64,000 nt of DNA. Origin: Lachnospiraceae bacterium (GTDB lineage: Bacteria; Bacillota; Clostridia; Lachnospirales; Lachnospiraceae). This document shows, piece by piece, positions 26,123 to 58,409 of this stretch. Position 1 is the stretch's first letter. Each line of letters opens with the position of its first letter. The notes beneath the pieces were generated by a model that did no database searches, had not been told where the DNA came from, and was given only the letters and a program-made list of their open reading frames with translations. The stretch lies in NCBI GenBank assembly GCA_029062895.1, contig JAIDPF010000091.1, positions 1,502 through 65,501 of the forward strand, read 5' to 3'. The translations under genes were made by a program, and so were the position numbers.

Positions 26123-26190
26123 TTTCTTTCACTGATCTGTGATTGCTTTCATATGATATATAAAATGCTTATTGCATTACACATTAATAT

Positions 26191-26303
26191 AAACTGATCA
26201 GGCTGTAAACGATATGTTTATGAAGCCGGGCTGCAAGCTGGCAGCAGCAGATGGAATGATTCACATCTGTGGGACAGCTGTGTGTTCCATAGGTGTGTTT
26301 TTT
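26191..26303 (+). ncRNA. NiCo (czcD) riboswitch with overlapping intrinsic terminator
   Basis: ACUGAUCAGGC...GCCGGGCUGC...GCAGCAGAUG...CAUCUGUGGGACAG four-way-junction pattern; terminator cacatctgtgggac/gttccataggtgtg plus T run; upstream of a CDF gene. Confidence 0.85.
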
Positions 26304-27544: not shown

Positions 27545-27720
27545 GACAAAAATTAAGCATTGCCCGTAAGTAATCGGGATTGCTAAGCTATGAAGTGTCA
27601 CGCAGGAGTCAAGAGGTGTGCATGGAGCTTTGGTGGTTGCATAATAACCAGACTTGACGTAGGCAGAAATGCTGAAAGAAAATATGCATAAGCGGTTCTG
27701 TTTTCAGAGCCGCTTATTTT
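27545..27720 (+). ncRNA. Candidate small RNA, copy 2
   Basis: Promoter TTGATA-17-TATAAT (27510-27538); stem gtcaag (27608-13)/cttgac (27653-58); terminator ataagcggttctg/cagagccgcttat plus T run. Confidence 0.68.
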
Positions 27721-30190: not shown

Positions 30191-30342
30191 TTGAAACCTC
30201 CAAAATTATGTAATATAAGCGATACTTATCAATAATAGCGATAATAAAAAATATTGTCAAGGCTAGGTGTTGATAGAATAGAAAAAGTGGTTTAAAATAA
30301 AGATGAGTGTATATGGCGTTACGGAAAGGCATGGTTATTAAT

Positions 30343-31938
30343 ATGGGCTTCTTTAAAAAATTATCTGCTATTATAACGGCTTTGTTGGCATTATTTCTTC
30401 TGTTTATTATCATATGTGCGTTGAATCCCGATCTTTCTAAAAGGATAGGGAGTTCTCTTTTTCCGAAAGAGGATCAAACAGTATCTTTGAGCAGCAATTA
30501 TACGGACTTGCCGGTTCCCACCGTGGATGTCGTTTCAGCCAATGATACTGTTCAGGAGCCGGTTCAGACGCCGCTGTTTCCTGATTATAATGGGAATCAG
30601 AACGTAATCCCCAATGGAAATAACCAGCCTGCTTCTAATCAAACGCTGGACTGGGGCAGCACAGGAATAGCAAGAGATACTGCTTCCACTTATGTGGCGC
30701 CTAGCACGTCCGGTCTGACGATTCCAAGTACGGTAAGTGGCAAAAATGGGTATCAGCCGTTACAGGAAGAATACATACCAGTCAGCGACGCTCAGGCTGA
30801 GCAGATCCAGGATCAGCTTGGTACAGGATTTACTGGTGAAGGATTAACGTTTGATCCGTATTGGTATCCTTACTATGGTATGTTAGATGAGAGAGGGCAG
30901 CATATTTATTGCCAGATCTATGCCAATGCGAAAGAGCTGAACGCTGCATTTGTCCCGTTGGAACCGATTACGTCAGGTCAGCTGAAAAACGCACTGACCG
31001 CAGTGTATAACGACCATCCGGAGCTGTTCTGGCTGGATACGGCGTATTATAGTAAATATACTCCAGAAGGACAGTGTGCGGAGATTGGTTTACAATTTAA
31101 CCGCACGGCGCAGAATCTGGAAAGTGCAAAATCCTCTTTTGAAGAAAGTGCGAGGGAGATTCTTGACAAAGCACGGGGATTATCAAGTGATTATGCGAAA
31201 GAAGTATATGTTCATGATGCGCTGATAGATAATACCACCTATAATCTTAGGGCGGAAATGAATCAGAGCGCTTATAGCGCGCTGGTAAATGGACAGACGG
31301 TATGCGCCGGATACGCAAGGGCATTTCAATATCTGATGCAGCAGTTGAATATCCCATGCTATTATTGCGCAGGTTATGCCGGAGAAAGACATGCGTGGAA
31401 TATTATTGTATTGGATGACGGCTGTTATAATGTGGATACGACATGGGATGACGTCGGTGATGGCACTTATGATTATTTTAATAAAAATGATACGGATTAC
31501 GCAAGCAATCACGTAAGACAGGAGCTTTCCGTGTATCTGCCACCCTGTAATGGGCGGGCATACCGCAATCTGGAAAAGCCGCCGCAGACAGCTTCATCGA
31601 ATCAGACAACTTCGTCAAATCAGGCAGGAACATTAAGAACTTTGGCGGATGTCGGCGTATCGGAGTCGCAGGTCATTAAGGATATGGCAGTATATTATCA
31701 GAACTGCCATAATCAGATTTTGGCAAATGGAAAAGGGGATTATACCTTTTATAATGTGATAGAGGGAAGACAGCTGTTGACCAGATGGGAACAGGAAATA
31801 GATAATGGAACTTATAATGATGAATATATGACTGCAGTTATGGTAGAACTTGATGCCGGAGACTGCAAGATGCAGCTGCGGGTAGAGGAACTGCAAGGGG
31901 ACAGATATCTGATCACGCATCAGATATCGATCAACTAA
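30343..31938 (+). CDS. Membrane-anchored transglutaminase-domain protein
   Basis: N-terminal TM, low-complexity linker, VCAGYA / HAWN / VDTTWD triad (Cys-His-Asp); start moved to ATG 30343. Confidence 0.85.
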   Translation: MGFFKKLSAIITALLALFLLFIIICALNPDLSKRIGSSLFPKEDQTVSLSSNYTDLPVPTVDVVSANDTVQEPVQTPLFPDYNGNQNVIPNGNNQPASNQTLDWGSTGIARDTASTYVAPSTSGLTIPSTVSGKNGYQPLQEEYIPVSDAQAEQIQDQLGTGFTGEGLTFDPYWYPYYGMLDERGQHIYCQIYANAKELNAAFVPLEPITSGQLKNALTAVYNDHPELFWLDTAYYSKYTPEGQCAEIGLQFNRTAQNLESAKSSFEESAREILDKARGLSSDYAKEVYVHDALIDNTTYNLRAEMNQSAYSALVNGQTVCAGYARAFQYLMQQLNIPCYYCAGYAGERHAWNIIVLDDGCYNVDTTWDDVGDGTYDYFNKNDTDYASNHVRQELSVYLPPCNGRAYRNLEKPPQTASSNQTTSSNQAGTLRTLADVGVSESQVIKDMAVYYQNCHNQILANGKGDYTFYNVIEGRQLLTRWEQEIDNGTYNDEYMTAVMVELDAGDCKMQLRVEELQGDRYLITHQISIN

Positions 31939-39102: not shown

Positions 39103-39831
39103 TCATATATATCTGACATCCTGCTTTTTCAAAAGGCAGATGCCGATACAGGAGATGATTATCCCTATGGCACAGCATAGAAGCGGCATAAAGTGACCGT
39201 GCAAAAGGCTTCCGGCATAATCAATATGATGTTCCAATGATGCCATCTCTTCACTGTCCATGCTTGATAAAAATATGCTGGCACACATCCATATTCCCCA
39301 GAGGATCCAGTAGATGATTAGGCCAAAACGGATGAGGAGGCTGCCTAGGAACAGGCGTATGCCCAAAACTATGGCTGCAAATGCCAGCATCCAGAAGATG
39401 CCGGAAGAAAAGCTGCCAAACAGGGCTGTGAAAAACGGAAGTTCCGGTTCTCTGGAAAAGCCAGAATAGCATAAGGGAATCAGTACGCTGTTTTCCAATT
39501 GAAACAGGAGAAAGCAGAGGATATACAGGATCAGGCTTCCGAGGACGGTTTGGAACAATTCCGTCAGGATATAGTTTTCCCTTGTTGTACTCATGGATAT
39601 GGCAAGTGTAAAATATTTTGTTACGGTAAAAGGACCGCTAATGATCCAGAACATAGCAACGGAAATCAGGGACATTGTACTGGCCAGAGGAAATACAGGC
39701 ATATCGTGCAGTCCGCCCAGGATTCCATACATAAAGATCAGATTTAGAATCAGTCCGATAAGATAGACCAGTCCAGTGATGATAAGTAAGGAAACAAAGT
39801 TTTTTTGAGTGATATTCCAAAATTTTCTCAT
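39103..39831 (-). CDS. ABC-2 type membrane protein (Ytr-like operon)
   Basis: About six TM helices, FTLAISMSTTRENY motif; last gene of the GntR-ABC operon; start ATG 39831. Confidence 0.75.
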   Translation of the reverse strand: MRKFWNITQKNFVSLLIITGLVYLIGLILNLIFMYGILGGLHDMPVFPLASTMSLISVAMFWIISGPFTVTKYFTLAISMSTTRENYILTELFQTVLGSLILYILCFLLFQLENSVLIPLCYSGFSREPELPFFTALFGSFSSGIFWMLAFAAIVLGIRLFLGSLLIRFGLIIYWILWGIWMCASIFLSSMDSEEMASLEHHIDYAGSLLHGHFMPLLCCAIGIIISCIGICLLKKQDVRYI

Positions 39832-39903
39832 ATTGATAACCATGCCTTTCCGTAACCCGCGAATTTTAATGCACTTTAGTGCTATACCGTGGGTACAATA
39901 TTT
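39829..39903 (-). repeat. Dispersed RBS-bearing repeat, full copy
   Basis: 57/66 identity to 58335-58400 (aaatattgt..atagcactaaagtgcattaaaatt.gc.ggttacggaaaggca). Confidence 0.85.
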
Positions 39904-39947
39904 GAAAAACGTATAAATTCGTTTATGAAAAATCTTTGATTTTCAAT

Positions 39948-40562
39948 CTACATTCTGTCGATGGTCCTTTTGCCAAAAAGAGTTACGATCAGACCATAGA
40001 GAATCAGCATGCCTCCAATGATGATCAACCGGGAAGAGGGACCCGATAGAAATTCTGTCATCAGGGAGAAAGAGTTCAGTGCAAAAACAGCTATGCCACC
40101 ATAAAAGATGACCAGGATCAGCATCATTTTTGCATAGCCGAACCGGCGGACCAGAAACCCCATCAGAATTCCCAAAGTAGTAGATAAGAGTTCCGAGATT
40201 ACAAAGGACAGGATCATATCGGCAGTGATGGAGGTGGAAGCAATCATCTTCATGAGCAGAAAGACCGCTAAGCATTCAATTAAGAGCTCTGCTGTGAGAA
40301 TATAAATGCTTAGATAGATATTTCTGCGGGTACATCCCATAGACAGACAAAAATCGATCTGGTATCTGATATACTTTTCGATCAGGGCGCAGGGGAGGAT
40401 GGCCAGAATCGTTTCGAGGTATCCTATTATTTTTTCCGGCGAGTCATTGATAAATGTAGTCAGAAAGATACTGTAGATCAGACCACCCAATATAATGATG
40501 GAAAATATTTTACCCTGATAAAGACTGATAAATTGTATATGACGTTTGAGTCCTTCATTCAT
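39948..40562 (-). CDS. ABC-2 type membrane protein (Ytr-like operon)
   Basis: Hydrophobic, FCLSMGCTRRNIY motif; RBS aaggag. Confidence 0.75.
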   Translation of the reverse strand: MNEGLKRHIQFISLYQGKIFSIIILGGLIYSIFLTTFINDSPEKIIGYLETILAILPCALIEKYIRYQIDFCLSMGCTRRNIYLSIYILTAELLIECLAVFLLMKMIASTSITADMILSFVISELLSTTLGILMGFLVRRFGYAKMMLILVIFYGGIAVFALNSFSLMTEFLSGPSSRLIIIGGMLILYGLIVTLFGKRTIDRM

Positions 40563-41520: not shown

Positions 41521-41892
41521 TTATTTTTTATCTTCTTCGGCATGGATCATGCGGATCAGGTCTTCTCCGGTTATTCCAAGGCTGTGGGCTTCTTCCATCA
41601 TGGCTTTGAAATAGCGATGGTAGAATTCTTCTTTCCGATGCTGCCTGATCTTTTCCTTTGCTCCGGAGGTCACAAACATTCCAATTCCCCTTTTCTTATA
41701 TAAAATATTTCTATCTACCAGAAGATTGATCCCTTTGGCAGCGGTTGCCGGATTGATGGCGTAAAGCGCTGCAAGTTCATTGGTAGAAGGTACTCGTTCT
41801 TCTTCCAGTAGGATATCCCTGAGAATATCATTCTCAATCATCTCACTGATCTGCAGATAAATTGATTTTTCCTGTGTGAGAATTTCATTCAT
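41521..41892 (-). CDS. GntR family regulator (YtrA subfamily)
   Basis: IYLQI, VPSTNELA, INPATAAKG, KKRGIGMFV; short C-terminus; promoter TTGACA-17-TATAGT on the minus strand at 42107-42135. Confidence 0.92.
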   Translation of the reverse strand: MNEILTQEKSIYLQISEMIENDILRDILLEEERVPSTNELAALYAINPATAAKGINLLVDRNILYKKRGIGMFVTSGAKEKIRQHRKEEFYHRYFKAMMEEAHSLGITGEDLIRMIHAEEDKK

Positions 41893-41896
41893 TACC

Positions 41897-42054
41897 AATC
41901 CTCCATGTCAGAGCAATTTTATTGCGATGACACGCGATGAGAAATCCGCGTAGGCGGTTTCTCATCTGCGATCAAAGCAATTTGAGGCTCTGACTCAAAT
42001 TGCTGATTGAAAAATAAGATATCAATCTTATTTTTCAATCTAATCCTCCATGTC
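41897..42054. mobile_element. Small hairpin-array insertion (MITE/REP-like) flanked by a 13-bp direct repeat
   Basis: aatcctccatgtc at 41897-41909 and 42042-42054; internal stems at 41936-41966, 41976-42004 (11 bp) and 42005-42040 (perfect 16 bp). Confidence 0.6.
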
Positions 42055-46845: not shown

Positions 46846-47745
46846 ATGGAAGACACAACAGTTGATATAGAGACGGCGCAAAGTGAATTGATCGGTAACG
46901 CCGCTGATCCTGCTGACTTCTGTGAACGTGTAGAAACAGAGCTTAGAAAGCGTTATCATAAAAAGCTGTTTTCGCCGTTTGCGAAGGCGATCAATACATA
47001 CCAACTCCTGCAGGAGCATGATAAAGTTGCGGTATGCATTTCCGGCGGTAAGGATTCCATGCTGATGGCGAAGTTATTTCAGGAGCTGCAGCGGCATCGG
47101 AAGTTTCCATTTGAACTGGTGTTTCTGGTTATGGATCCGGGGTATCGAGAAGAAAATCGCAGGATGATCGAGCATAATGCAAAGCTTCTTGGGATCCCGA
47201 TCACAATATTTGAATCCGAGATCTTTGATGCGGTATATGAGATTGAAAAATCGCCATGTTATCTTTGCGCAAGGATGAGGCGGGGGCATCTGTATCATAC
47301 GGCAAAGGAACTGGGATGTAATAAAATAGCGCTGGGACATCATTATGATGATGTGATTGAGACGATCCTGATGGGAATGCTTTACGGCGGGCAGATCCAG
47401 AGCATGATGCCCAAGCTGCATAGTACGAATTTTGAGGGAATGGAGCTGATCCGTCCCATGTATCTGATCCGGGAGGCGGATATCAAGCGATGGCGGGATG
47501 AGAACGGACTACAGTTTTTACAGTGTGCATGCCGGTTTACGGAACGCTGCGCAGCACGAGGTGCCGATGAGCCTATGGAATCCAAACGGCAGGAGGTAAA
47601 AGAGCTGATCGCCCGGATGAAAAAAGACAACCCTTTTGTGGAATCCAATATCTTTAAAAGTGTGGAAAATGTATCGCTGGACACGGTGATTGCATATAAG
47701 AAAAAGGGAAAGAAGATATCGTTTCTGGATGAGTATGACAGTTGA
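46846..47745 (+). CDS. ttcA: TtcA-family tRNA thiolation (PP-loop) protein
   Basis: SGGKDS, CYLCARMRRG, ALGHHYDD, LIRPM, CAC; ATG 46846 after aaggag. Confidence 0.8.
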   Translation: MEDTTVDIETAQSELIGNAADPADFCERVETELRKRYHKKLFSPFAKAINTYQLLQEHDKVAVCISGGKDSMLMAKLFQELQRHRKFPFELVFLVMDPGYREENRRMIEHNAKLLGIPITIFESEIFDAVYEIEKSPCYLCARMRRGHLYHTAKELGCNKIALGHHYDDVIETILMGMLYGGQIQSMMPKLHSTNFEGMELIRPMYLIREADIKRWRDENGLQFLQCACRFTERCAARGADEPMESKRQEVKELIARMKKDNPFVESNIFKSVENVSLDTVIAYKKKGKKISFLDEYDS

Positions 47746-47770
47746 TAAGGAAAGGCATGGTTAATTAATA

Positions 47771-48757
47771 ATGGAACAGGATATTAAACAGACGATCGCT
47801 GCTGCTGCTGCGGGGCTTAGCGGGAATTACCGGTCACAGGAGATCTTTGAAGTCAGTATCGGGGTAAAGTTGCCGAATCGTTCGGAGATCATCGAGGTGG
47901 TGGATGAGGTTCGCAGACTGATGTTTCCCGGATATTTTGGTGATGAGAATACGGCTTATGTTTCTCTGGAGAGTTTTGCGGGCAATACGCTGGCGGGAGT
48001 TTATGAAAAGCTGTTTAAGCAGATAAAGACGGCTCTTTTATATAAGATGGGCAGTAAGGATGAATCGCAGGAAATGCAGGAGGCGGAAAGTCGGAGAGAG
48101 GCGGACGCTGCAGACCGGGAAACTCATGAGACAGAGAAGCTGACGGAACAGCAGATCAGAAATCAGGCGGAGGATCTTACTTTGCAGTTTATCGGGCGTC
48201 TTCCGGAGATACAAAAACTTTTGTTCAAGGATGTGGAAGCGGAGCTGGCAGGGGATCCTGCAGCAAACAGTAAGGAGGAAATCATATTTTCCTATCCGGG
48301 AATCTTTGCAATCTTTGTTTACCGAATCGCGCATGAACTGTATCAGCTGAATGTTCCGTATATTCCCAGAATCATGACGGAGTATGCTCATGGCAAGACA
48401 GGGATCGACATCAATCCCGGCGCAGAGATCGGAGAGTATTTTTTTATCGACCATGGTACGGGTATTGTGATTGGCGAGACGACGAGGATCGGTGATCATG
48501 TGAAGATCTATCAGGGTGTGACGCTTGGCGCATTATCCACACAGAAAGGGCAGGCGCTTTCCGGAGTGAAGCGTCACCCGACGATTGAGGATAACGTGGT
48601 CATCTATGCCAATACGACGGTCCTTGGCGGAGAGACTATTATTGGCAGAAATTCCGTAGTAGCGGGCAATTCCTTTGTGACAGAGTCGATTCCGCCTGAC
48701 ACGAAGGTATCGGCATATCTGCCGGAACTGCAGTATAAAAGCAGGAAAAAAGATTAA
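47771..48757 (+). CDS. cysE: Serine O-acetyltransferase (EpsC/CysE type)
   Basis: [44 protein letters not shown]. Confidence 0.9.
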
Positions 48758-51180: not shown

Positions 51181-52008
51181 TTATCTTACAGTAATGGAAG
51201 TAATATGGGGATTAGCGCCATTATACCAGTAAAGGAAACCTTCCATGCTGACAACATCGCCGATTTGAAGATTCTTAACAGCGGCATATACGTCCGTTGT
51301 ATTATCACACAGATAAGATTCTACTACAAAGGAATAAGTTTCGCCATTGGCGGAAACATTGAAATAAAGATCATCGCCATCGGATCCTGAATTATCCCAG
51401 TTATACATAAATGCCTCTCCATTGCCGGCATCCTCTACGGTCATATCGGTGAAGGATACCAGTTCATTTTGATGAACGATCAGTTCATCTTCTACGCCAA
51501 GGATATCAGTTACATCCAAAGGTTTAGCAACGAAGTTGCCGTCAATGATCTCAAAAGTAGCATCCGTGATCTCAATCTCACCGGACCATTCGCTCTTATA
51601 ACCTGTTACGCGGATTTTGGTGCCAACAGTCAATTTCTCATAGTCTTCTGCAGAACATGCCATTCCATAGATAAAGTAAGCGCCATCCTCATCCTGTGTA
51701 TAGATGGTTGCTGTATCCTCCCACCAAGCCTGCTTTGCCTGTACATAGGTCTCTACAACGACCTGTGTATCCAGATCAGCAGCGATGTATTCCGCATACG
51801 TCATAACGCCCTCTGTAGATTCTTCTTCAGGGGTTGTTTCCGTATTTCCCGAAGCGTCGTCGACATCATTGCGATCTGTTTCCGTTTCAGTTGTTGCATC
51901 CGTTCCATTTCCGTCAGATGTGGGATTCTCTGTTTTGCCACATCCGCTTAACGCAACCGCAAGTGAAAGAACGGCTGCCGTCATCAGTGCTAAATAATGT
52001 TTTTTCAT
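51181..52008 (-). CDS. Lipoprotein with two OB-fold-like modules
   Basis: Lipobox LSGC, acidic linker, LTVGTKIRVTGYKSEWSG and LQIGDVVSMEGFLYWYNG; start ATG 52008. Confidence 0.7.
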   Translation of the reverse strand: MKKHYLALMTAAVLSLAVALSGCGKTENPTSDGNGTDATTETETDRNDVDDASGNTETTPEEESTEGVMTYAEYIAADLDTQVVVETYVQAKQAWWEDTATIYTQDEDGAYFIYGMACSAEDYEKLTVGTKIRVTGYKSEWSGEIEITDATFEIIDGNFVAKPLDVTDILGVEDELIVHQNELVSFTDMTVEDAGNGEAFMYNWDNSGSDGDDLYFNVSANGETYSFVVESYLCDNTTDVYAAVKNLQIGDVVSMEGFLYWYNGANPHITSITVR

Positions 52009-52218
52009 AATAATAACCATGCCTTTCCGTAACCTGCGAATTTGGGCCGCAGGCACAAATTATCTCCCTTTCTGCTTTTTGAGCATTGCATATATGATTA
52101 TGACTCATATATGTAATAGAAAATCTTGAATATTCTATTTAAGATCTCCGATTTTCTATTTTTCCTCGTTATTTTACAAAGTTATAATGGATAAATCAAT
52201 GTATTTTTCTACAAAAAA

Positions 52219-58019: not shown

Positions 58020-58049
58020 TTGACAATCCTGCGCGGCATTGCTTATAAT
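58020..58049 (+). promoter_or_regulatory. Sigma-70 promoter of the ileS leader
   Basis: TTGACA (58020-25), 18-bp spacer, TATAAT (58044-49). Confidence 0.75.
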
Positions 58050-58059
58050 ATGGGTGCGA

Positions 58060-58329
58060 TAAAGGCGATGACGAAGACAGTATCTTATGATGGAAATCAA
58101 TAGTGTGATCAAACGCGCAGCGAGCCGGTGAGGGTGGGAGACCGGTGAAAGTAGATCATAAGGGAAGATCACTTCCGAGCTGCAGGCTGAAAATTAAGGT
58201 AGGCTGTGCCGTGTGTGCCGACGTTACCGGCAGGCATATGAAAGTCCTGTGCATGACGTGGGGACGGAGTATGAGCGTAACAGGTGGTTATGGGTATGAT
58301 CTCATCCTTTTACGGGATGAGTTTTTTTT
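58060..58329 (+). ncRNA. T-box riboswitch (Ile)
   Basis: Stem I features (AGCGA, GGTGGGA, GAA); specifier ATC (Ile) at 58168-70; UGGU bulge at 58285-88; terminator ctcatcc/ggatgag plus T8; precedes ileS. Confidence 0.82.
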
Positions 58330-58334
58330 GTTTT

Positions 58335-58409
58335 AAATATTGTGCCTGCAGCATAGCACTAAAGTGCATTAAAATTTGCAGGTTACGGAAAGGCAGGGGT
58401 ATTGAGATG
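58335..58409 (+). repeat. Dispersed RBS-bearing repeat, full copy, supplying the ileS RBS
   Basis: 57/66 identity to 39838-39903 (minus strand). Confidence 0.85.

Follow-up and report, generated by a model that had tools for sequence, protein, structure and literature searches.

The window analysed here is a 64-kb stretch (64,000 nucleotides, nt), positions 1502-65501 of contig C107, of a Lachnospiraceae genome, hereafter G000 (3.07 Mb in 115 contigs, 43% GC), and it carries several copies of a hairpin-bearing intergenic repeat that stands directly in front of the start codons of unrelated genes. A sequence-only reading of the window had listed five such copies; all five lie where it placed them, and each ends on an ATG that opens a long open reading frame (ORF). 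A search with the 15-mer GGTTACGGAAAGGCA, allowing up to two mismatches, returned four matches in the window versus 0.11 expected. The copies, their hairpin modules (H1, H1b, P2 and P3) and the Shine-Dalgarno (SD) sequence found beside one of them are distributed as follows.

39829..39950, minus strand: complete composite copy with every module (nhmmer match C107:41465-41329); H1a 39925-39947, H1b 39905-39924, P2 5' arm 39887-39893, P3 hairpin 39863-39886, P2 3' arm 39856-39862, tail 39832-39855
58335..58409, plus strand: ileS copy, without H1, placed after the T-box terminator and ahead of the ileS start; P2 5' arm 58345-58351, P3 58352-58375, P2 3' arm 58376-58382, tail 58383-58406 (variant GGCAGGGGTATTGAG), ATG 58407-58409
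52006..52060, minus strand: short variant, without H1 and P3, between the native SD of a lipoprotein gene and its ATG (52008-52006)
52064..52072, minus strand: the lipoprotein gene's own SD GAAAGGGAG, left stranded about 56 nt away from the ATG
30318..30345, plus strand: lone tail TTACGGAAAGGCATGGTTATTAAT and ATG (30343-30345) of a transglutaminase-like gene
47745..47773, plus strand: tail fragment at cysE, made of the SD AAGGAAAGG, then the repeat-type CATGGTTAATTAATA, then the ATG (47771-47773)

The copy in front of the ABC-2 permease gene occupies the entire spacer between the stop codon TAG of the upstream ORF (39950-39948; ORF 39948..40562) and the permease ATG (39831-39829), and its leading TAG doubles as that stop codon. 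It is the hairpins H1a and H1b, unnoticed in the sequence-only reading, that lengthen this copy to 39950. The identity of 57/66 that had been reported between the two full copies holds for a sub-stretch only, and 39829-39903 (minus strand) and 58335-58409 (plus strand) agree at 63 of 75 positions without a gap. Likewise, the copy at 52006-52060 (minus strand) had been taken for an internally deleted one: the 24-nt P3 hairpin gcactaaagtgc is indeed absent, but the copy represents the common short variant of the family. The two 3' fragments stood as described, with only the 3' tail present at 30318-30345 and around 47745-47773, both on the plus strand.

A complete unit reads, in order, (T)TA|G-ATTGAAAAAT-loop-ATTTTTCAAT-C (H1), a further AT-rich hairpin that may be absent (H1b, AAACGAATTTATTCGTTT), the linker GCAAAT(A)TTGTG, the hairpin P2 (CCTGCGG...TCGCAGG) with an optional nested P3, and a tail TTAYGGAAAGGCATGGTTATTA-RT-ATG. 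H1, also AT-rich, spans G-ATTGAAAAAT...ATTTTTCAATC and has the arms GTGTGAAAAAT/ATTTTTCACAC in other genera, while the P2 loop measures 6-8 nt or carries the inserted P3, which comes in lineage-specific amplified types (24 nt, catagcactaaagtgcattaaaat; 41 nt, cagcatacaacaaaaagcttacgcttttcgttgtcaagaat; and caatgcgtaaaaacacgcatgaaag in another metagenome-assembled genome, MAG). These hairpins fold as independent local stems. H1 is preceded by the dinucleotide TA in about 61 of 96 copies, and most copies read TTAT|TA before their last two bases; an SD-like motif lies ahead of the 5' end of H1 in 38 of 96 copies versus 6.7% at random positions. The P2 stem varies little; compensatory variants exist in small number (CCCGCGG/CCGCGGG and CCTGCAG/TTGCAGG, among others). 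Its positions 1-6 give 332 Watson-Crick pairs, 38 G.U, 14 A.C and 12 other mismatches, as counted over copies that share descent and hence are not independent. This pattern is a mild hint, though not a decisive one, that pairing may occur in the sense-strand RNA (or a single strand). In copies of the TTAT type, a small fold UAUG-GAAAGG-CAUG puts GGA in a loop, and a minority of the tails have the form GGCATGGAGGATTAGTATG, in which a canonical GGAGG is ideally spaced.

On the scale of the 3.07 Mb genome, which the sequence-only reading had not seen, a profile made of 78 seeds gave 121 nhmmer matches, dispersed over many contigs and on both strands, and 116 of them contain the anchor GGAAAGGCA. 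The 18-mer GGAAAGGCATGGTTATTA with at most one mismatch is found 73 times in G000, versus 0 for the reversed control. With respect to genes, which outside the window are crude ORF calls, 113 of the 121 copies are in the sense orientation to the next gene and 92 abut its start, so that the placement is non-random. A strict set of 66 copies has the start codon of an ORF of 60 aa or more at exactly 20 nt past the start of the anchor; conservation per position is kept to -1 (...GGAAAGGCATGGTTATTA[A/G]T ATG) and is at background directly past the ATG. The similarity is not confined to an SD core either, spanning 60-150 nt with the hairpins included. Ten downstream proteins taken at random comprised ABC-2 permeases, XseB, IspF, SecE, an AraC regulator, MnmA, RimM and PurE, one being without a Pfam match, and the Pfam domains of the sampled proteins start at residues 1-16, which indicates that the repeat-adjacent ATG is the true start. 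Mechanical ORF calls (30307.., 39103..39843, 51181..52056 and 58284..) have their starts pushed upstream into the repeat, at a GTG or ATG within the tail or P2, and automatic annotations of repeat-fronted genes are therefore likely to have over-long N-termini. Besides, a co-oriented gene precedes 102 of 119 copies (86%), usually within 80 nt, the baseline for co-oriented neighbours being 80%, and about one quarter of the copies lie upstream of a separate native SD or of another module.

Three close congeners are syntenic with G000 (flank or window identity: G017 about 94%, G022 about 91%, G011 83-91%), and the species keep their gene order even as the repeat changes. Orthologous sites occur both filled and empty; in the filled ones the unit has come between the native SD and start codon, leaving the old SD stranded upstream. 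At the lipoprotein gene, the empty allele of G022 reads gggagat|attATG, with the SD 5 nt from the ATG, and the filled alleles read gggagat|aatttgtgcc...catggttatt|attATG in G000 and gggagat|agattgaaaaat... in G011, where the unit enters at the same point and carries H1. In this G011 copy (L100, G011:C107) a run of N inside the repeat masks the 3' junction. Further empty alleles are gaggaccaaggt|ATG, gggagacttt|ATG and catggaggctgact|ATG; two pairs go from gttggTAgcATG to gttggCA|GATTG...GGTTAT|TAgcATG and from catggaggatTAgtTTG to ...ggatTA|GATTG...GGTTAT|TAgtTTG, and aaactTAggATG belongs to the same class of sites. At the transglutaminase-like gene, G022 and G017 have a full unit between the tail-like direct repeats GTTAGGGAAGG ... 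GTTACGGAAAGG while G000 has a single tail, which thus looks like a recombination product. At ileS, G017 has the same copy as G000, G022 reads gttttaAGGAGGTTATTAATATG and has no copy, and G011 has a remnant ATTCGCAG with a true SD AAGGAGGG. At cysE, the SD AAGGAAAGG is common to the relatives, which read ...aaggaaaggtaaaaaatATG (G022) and ...aaggaaggaaaatatATG (G011).

Turnover in the family is fast. Among 38 copies of G017 with orthologous flanks in G000, at 93.9% flank identity, 8 are unchanged, 12 show module changes and 18 lack the tail in G000; for copies of G022, the same comparison gave 1 unchanged, 12 with module changes and 5 without the tail. Modules (H1, H1b, short P3, long P3) are gained or lost at orthologous positions, and at some sites the entire stop-to-start spacer is exchanged for another cassette family, as in the G022 orthologue of 39832-39947, where a different cassette (of the third type described below) fills the gap.

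The sequence-only reading had proposed a portable translation-initiation module, and this is supported by the placement at start codons and by the filled and empty sister sites with their stranded SD. Neither of the two outcomes named there as refuting it, a random placement with respect to starts or a similarity limited to the SD core, was observed. We consider that the family probably consists of non-autonomous, modular, hairpin-rich intergenic repeats acting as a portable translation-initiation cassette. At the clearest sites, a unit lies between a gene's own SD and its start codon, or fills an intra-operon stop-to-start spacer, leaving the native SD 60-150 nt too far upstream. With the native SD out of range, the tail GGAAAGG, located 13 nt before the AUG, would be the only SD in range, and we infer that the tail works as a ribosome-binding site (RBS). 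The predicted duplex of the tail with the 16S rRNA 3' end has -11.8 kcal/mol, compared with -8.2 to -12.9 for the displaced native SDs and -19.8 for an ideal SD, a canonical Firmicute anti-SD being assumed. The minority of tails with a canonical SD (GGCATGGAGGATTAGTATG) is expected if selection acts on the tail as an RBS. The hairpins might act on the RNA level, for example as stabilisers or insulators at mRNA 5' ends or between cistrons. On this reading about 3% of G000 genes would initiate translation on repeat-derived sequence, including ileS, secE, rimM, purE, ispF and mnmA.

Several observations weigh against this portable cassette. GGAAAGG at a spacing of 13 nt is a moderate, sub-optimal SD, and the 16S rRNA 3' end was not found in the G000 assembly, the rRNA operon being missing from this MAG, so that the anti-SD had to be assumed canonical. 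As to mobility, terminal inverted repeats (TIRs) were not found, the 5' end GATTGAAAAAT being unlike the reverse complement of the 3' end ATAACCATGCC, and no partner transposase was found in the carriers, which are MAGs and often lose insertion sequence (IS) copies. Roughly one in two 'empty' sites cannot be explained by plain insertion, since native spacer bases have been replaced there (L157, L165, C77, C85). Finally, an exact 18- to 26-mer is conserved across genera, possibly from functional constraint.

The sub-optimal SD favours the view that the copies are selfish or neutral junk whose placement reflects survivorship, insertions falling anywhere in AT-rich spacers and persisting only where expression is unharmed, with translation relying on coupling or weak contacts and not on GGAAAGG. 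The co-oriented genes that usually end less than 80 nt upstream would make coupling possible, and the quarter of copies that have a separate native SD or a further module downstream of them points the same way. Survivorship alone would, however, permit a range of distances, whereas the tail-to-start distance is fixed at 20 nt in most copies; first-gene copies such as the one of ileS, behind a terminator, cannot depend on coupling, and the canonical GGAGG tails at ideal spacing are what selection on an RBS would produce. We regard this explanation as highly improbable.

The tail that is identical over 18-26 nt in distant genera could instead mark a conserved cis-regulatory RNA, bound by the ribosome or by a global post-transcriptional regulator (of the CsrA type, for example, with GGA in a loop), in which case the copies would form a regulon and the differences between species would reflect rewiring. 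The nearly uniform sense orientation fits such an RNA, as do the P2 pairing, which is kept through compensatory changes in some copies and in which G.U mismatches outnumber A.C ones (38 versus 14), and the UAUG-GAAAGG-CAUG fold with its GGA loop in TTAT-type copies. On the other hand, there is no Rfam match, the downstream genes are without a functional theme, the repeat is missing from 19 of 25 congeners, and orthologues gain or lose it at about 94% flank identity. The lineage-specific amplified subfamilies are typical of copying and not of independent constraint, and the TTAC/TTAT polymorphism does not covary with a partner strand. Altogether, a regulatory RNA of this kind seems improbable.

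A promoter function had also been suggested for the full copies, and the ileS copy had been described as lying inside the T-box leader. The relevant features upstream of ileS are the following.

58020-58049, plus strand: perfect sigma-70-like promoter of ileS, TTGACA-18-TATAAT, upstream of the T-box
58059-58312 (context 58059..58329), plus strand: ileS T-box leader, Rfam RF00230, full-length match, 62.5 bits, E 2.6e-13
58301-58321, plus strand: intrinsic terminator of ileS with its T-run, preceding the repeat (promoter/terminator scan)

Neither suggestion held. A consensus scan shows no promoter-like site within the window copies, 86% of the copies follow a co-oriented gene, and ileS already has its perfect promoter upstream of the T-box. 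As to position, the ileS copy sits past the T-box terminator and before the ATG, outside the T-box fold. The T-box score is below the gathering score listed for RF00230 (93), which is why a default Rfam scan misses it.

Other roles were rejected as well. A coding N-terminal extension or leader peptide has some hints in its favour, since H1 opens with TTG or GTG after an SD-like sequence and the short variant is in frame with its gene; however, the distances from H1 to the ATG (78 nt in 8 copies, 79 in 6, 80 in 2, 81 in 6 and 82 in 5) have no 3-nt periodicity, and P3 variants carry stop codons. A known RNA family was dismissed, as nothing was found in Rfam scans at gathering or E-value thresholds, P2 covariation is limited and the genes are unrelated. 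An SD-masking switch was not retained either: the tail is about 54% unpaired with the real or with a shuffled upstream part, and the alternative long helix GCRAATTTG/CAAATTYGC most often holds an A.C mismatch. An extended pairing of P2 with 16S helix 45 was set aside by reasoning from the sequence: both contain CCUGCGG, but their segments do not follow one another as a continuous duplex would require.

How the translation-initiation cassette spreads can be approached through its junctions. Copies would multiply within a lineage, swapping or dropping hairpin modules, and would collapse to lone tails via recombination between tail-like direct repeats. The cleanest junctions resemble an insertion at a TA two bases ahead of the start codon. 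In 4-5 clean filled/empty pairs there is TA on both sides, while other pairs replace native bases and resemble recombination at microhomologies. A specific proposal is that the unit integrates by reading the translation-initiation site, entering at a TA two bases before the start and past the SD, and bringing a replacement SD; we hold this tentatively and think it rather unlikely. If true, it would describe a start-codon-directed 'RBS-hopping' element which rewires the translation initiation of housekeeping genes and can be cleanly lost.

Recombination through the tail-like direct repeats and through SD, TTAG or ATG microhomology is a serious rival. Here an ancestral 5' untranslated or intercistronic cassette, still a repeat-derived RBS, would have been copied between initiation regions by the host without transposition, through gene conversion, template switching or microhomology events at SD-like and TTAG/ATG sequences. 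The lack of TIRs and of a detected transposase speaks for it, together with the many junctions that replace native bases instead of showing plain insertion, the two tail-like direct repeats that often flank units, the occurrence of lone tails, and the stop-to-start spacers swapped for cassette families that share H1. The cysE junction falls within a GGAAAGG common to the native SD and the repeat, and the same origin has been hypothesised for the REP2 repeats of Neisseria (PMC3184786). Yet several clean junctions, each with TA on either side, are at targets lacking homology (gggagaTAttATG, gttggTAgcATG and aaactTAggATG), microhomologies of only 2-5 nt give poor grounds for over 100 events, and that most copies keep one set distance to the start codon suggests a defined end. 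We would give this host-driven route only a modest chance of being correct.

Among established mobile elements, an IS200/IS605-derived one, suggested by TTAC in the tail, was rejected: the presence of Y1_Tnp does not track the repeat, and the sole intact copy has unrelated ends. That single intact IS200/IS605-type Y1 transposase gene (G000 C8:16702-17058, minus strand) is flanked by GC-rich hairpins unlike the repeat. An IS630-type MITE (miniature inverted-repeat transposable element) targeting TA does not fit, with no TIRs and with DDE_3 absent from all four repeat-rich genomes, which are MAGs. Integron attC sites or gene cassettes were discarded as well, the copies being dispersed on many contigs and both strands while gene order is conserved.

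The family has a patchy distribution. The 18-mer, with at most one mismatch, was found in 6 of 25 congeners and in none of the other 19; the counts are 73 in G000, 52 in G017, 45 in G022 and 27 in G011, these four high-copy genomes all being MAGs, and 2 and 3 in two more congeners. With one genome taken per genus, at least one copy is present in 27 of 401 genera, with a maximum of 16, versus 0-1 for the reversed-pattern control. An exact 26-mer occurs in Acetatifactor, Kineothrix, Lachnoclostridium, Anaerocolumna jejuensis DSM 15929, Anaerosporobacter mobilis DSM 15930 and Bacterium C-53, and its copies there likewise adjoin start codons. The 26-mer is absent from IMG/VR records, and a phage or plasmid vector was rejected with only partial H1-like matches found, in a megaplasmid of Lachnospira eligens and in three unverified faecal 'phage' scaffolds. 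The megaplasmid match (NC_012780.1:114440-114481) covers 42 nt of H1 plus linker at 85.7%. It suggests that related hairpin modules exist in human-gut Lachnospiraceae.

A literature search with the repeat sequence string returned no relevant paper. The closest described kinds appear to be REP2 of Neisseria and IR-A/B of Borrelia, likened here by their architecture as described. In the review by Delihas, REP2 (Parkhill 2000; Morelle 2003, via Delihas 2011, PMC3184786) is given as a repeat of 120-150 bp with 26 copies, no TIRs and two 5' stem-loops; it carries a promoter, an RBS and an ATG directly upstream of ORFs that form a co-regulated host-contact gene set, and its origin and mode of proliferation are presented there as an open question. 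The Lachnospiraceae family resembles REP2 in being without TIRs, in having internal inverted repeats that form 5' stem-loops (H1 and P2 here), and in fusing an RBS and start codon at its 3' end to unrelated ORFs, 66-92 copies abutting true starts in our case. It differs in that REP2 has its own promoter whereas our repeats have no detectable one and lie mostly between co-oriented genes; in copy number, with about 26 versus about 120 here, roughly five-fold; in that REP2 marks a co-regulated set whereas the present family fronts unrelated housekeeping genes; and in being modular, with optional hairpins, in a host of the phylum Bacillota. The plasmid repeats IR-A/IR-B of Borrelia burgdorferi (Dunn 1994, as summarised in PMC3184786) also lie directly upstream of genes, with an RBS, an ATG and two 5' inverted repeats but, compared by description, they are plasmid-borne, of low copy number and promoter-bearing. 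MIRU elements (Supply 1997, as summarised in PMC3184786) are similarly intercistronic in polycistrons, overlap adjacent stop and start codons with their ends and have filled and empty sites, but they form tandem arrays with short in-frame ORFs for coupling, whereas our copies are mostly single and their H1-to-start distance is not a multiple of 3.

The TA-targeting MITEs (Correia/CREE, RUP and ERIC-type) share with our repeats the 5'-TA-3' that flanks both termini in many copies and in the cleanest filled/empty pairs, as well as a position on the 5' side of genes and an ability to change expression; they differ in having TIRs and IS630-like partners, neither TIRs nor DDE_3 being found here. 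The REP/BIME elements of Escherichia coli and the pneumococcal BOX elements (boxA-B-C) are again built of interchangeable hairpin modules which are intergenic, transcribed and of lineage-variable copy number. REP/BIME elements are mostly 3' of genes, are tied to RAYT transposases and consist of short GC-rich palindromes with a conserved 5' tetranucleotide, whereas our H1 is AT-rich and matches to the Y1 family are uncorrelated with the repeat. We know of no REP/BIME or BOX element that supplies an RBS. To our knowledge, the only repeats described so far as providing unrelated genes with an RBS and a start context are REP2 of Neisseria and those of Borrelia plasmids; the Lachnospiraceae family is about five times more numerous and is found in abundant gut Firmicutes and in cultured strains (A. 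jejuensis DSM 15929, A. mobilis DSM 15930 and Bacterium C-53). With dozens of filled, empty and rearranged sites in sister species, its junctions and its spreading mechanism can be studied directly. If the tail works as we propose, a mobile sequence can push aside the native SD of essential genes (ileS, secE, rimM, purE) and take its place, and the unit would offer a naturally insulated RBS cassette for the engineering of Clostridia.

The repeat is accompanied by sister cassettes that share H1 or the style of the tail, of which the following copies were located.

41894-42042, minus strand: copy of a second cassette family sharing the H1 hairpin, abutting the start of an ORF at about 41521..41898
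G000 C88:20880-20925: third cassette type (...GCCGCcgaagGCGGCGGAATGGAG..ATG), which also supplies an SD next to start codons

The copy at 41894-42042, overlooked in the sequence-only reading, has a long-loop H1 (TTGAAAAATAAGATTGATATCTTATTTTTCAA), a perfect hairpin CAATTTGAGTCAGAGCCTCAAATTG and a tail ...CTCTGACATGGAGGATTGGT with a canonical GGAGG. This second family, which reads ...caatttgagtcagagcctcaaattg...gctgctctgacatggaggattagtATG, has about 25 copies genome-wide and trades places with the first at orthologous sites, while the third reads ...GCCGCnaaagGCGGCggaatggag...ATG. On the same contig as the third-type copy, a 240-nt unique spacer (G000 C88:5964-6295) holds a large near-perfect palindrome (tttgtccatgcatgttccaaaaa...tttttggaacatgcatgggcaaa), which may be an operator or another element; in G022 the orthologous stop-to-start gap is filled by the repeat. 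Elsewhere in the window, matches at the Rfam gathering level were obtained for a NiCo (nickel/cobalt) riboswitch at 26184-26279 (plus strand, 75 bits) and for a drum RNA at 27585-27690 (plus strand, 50 bits).

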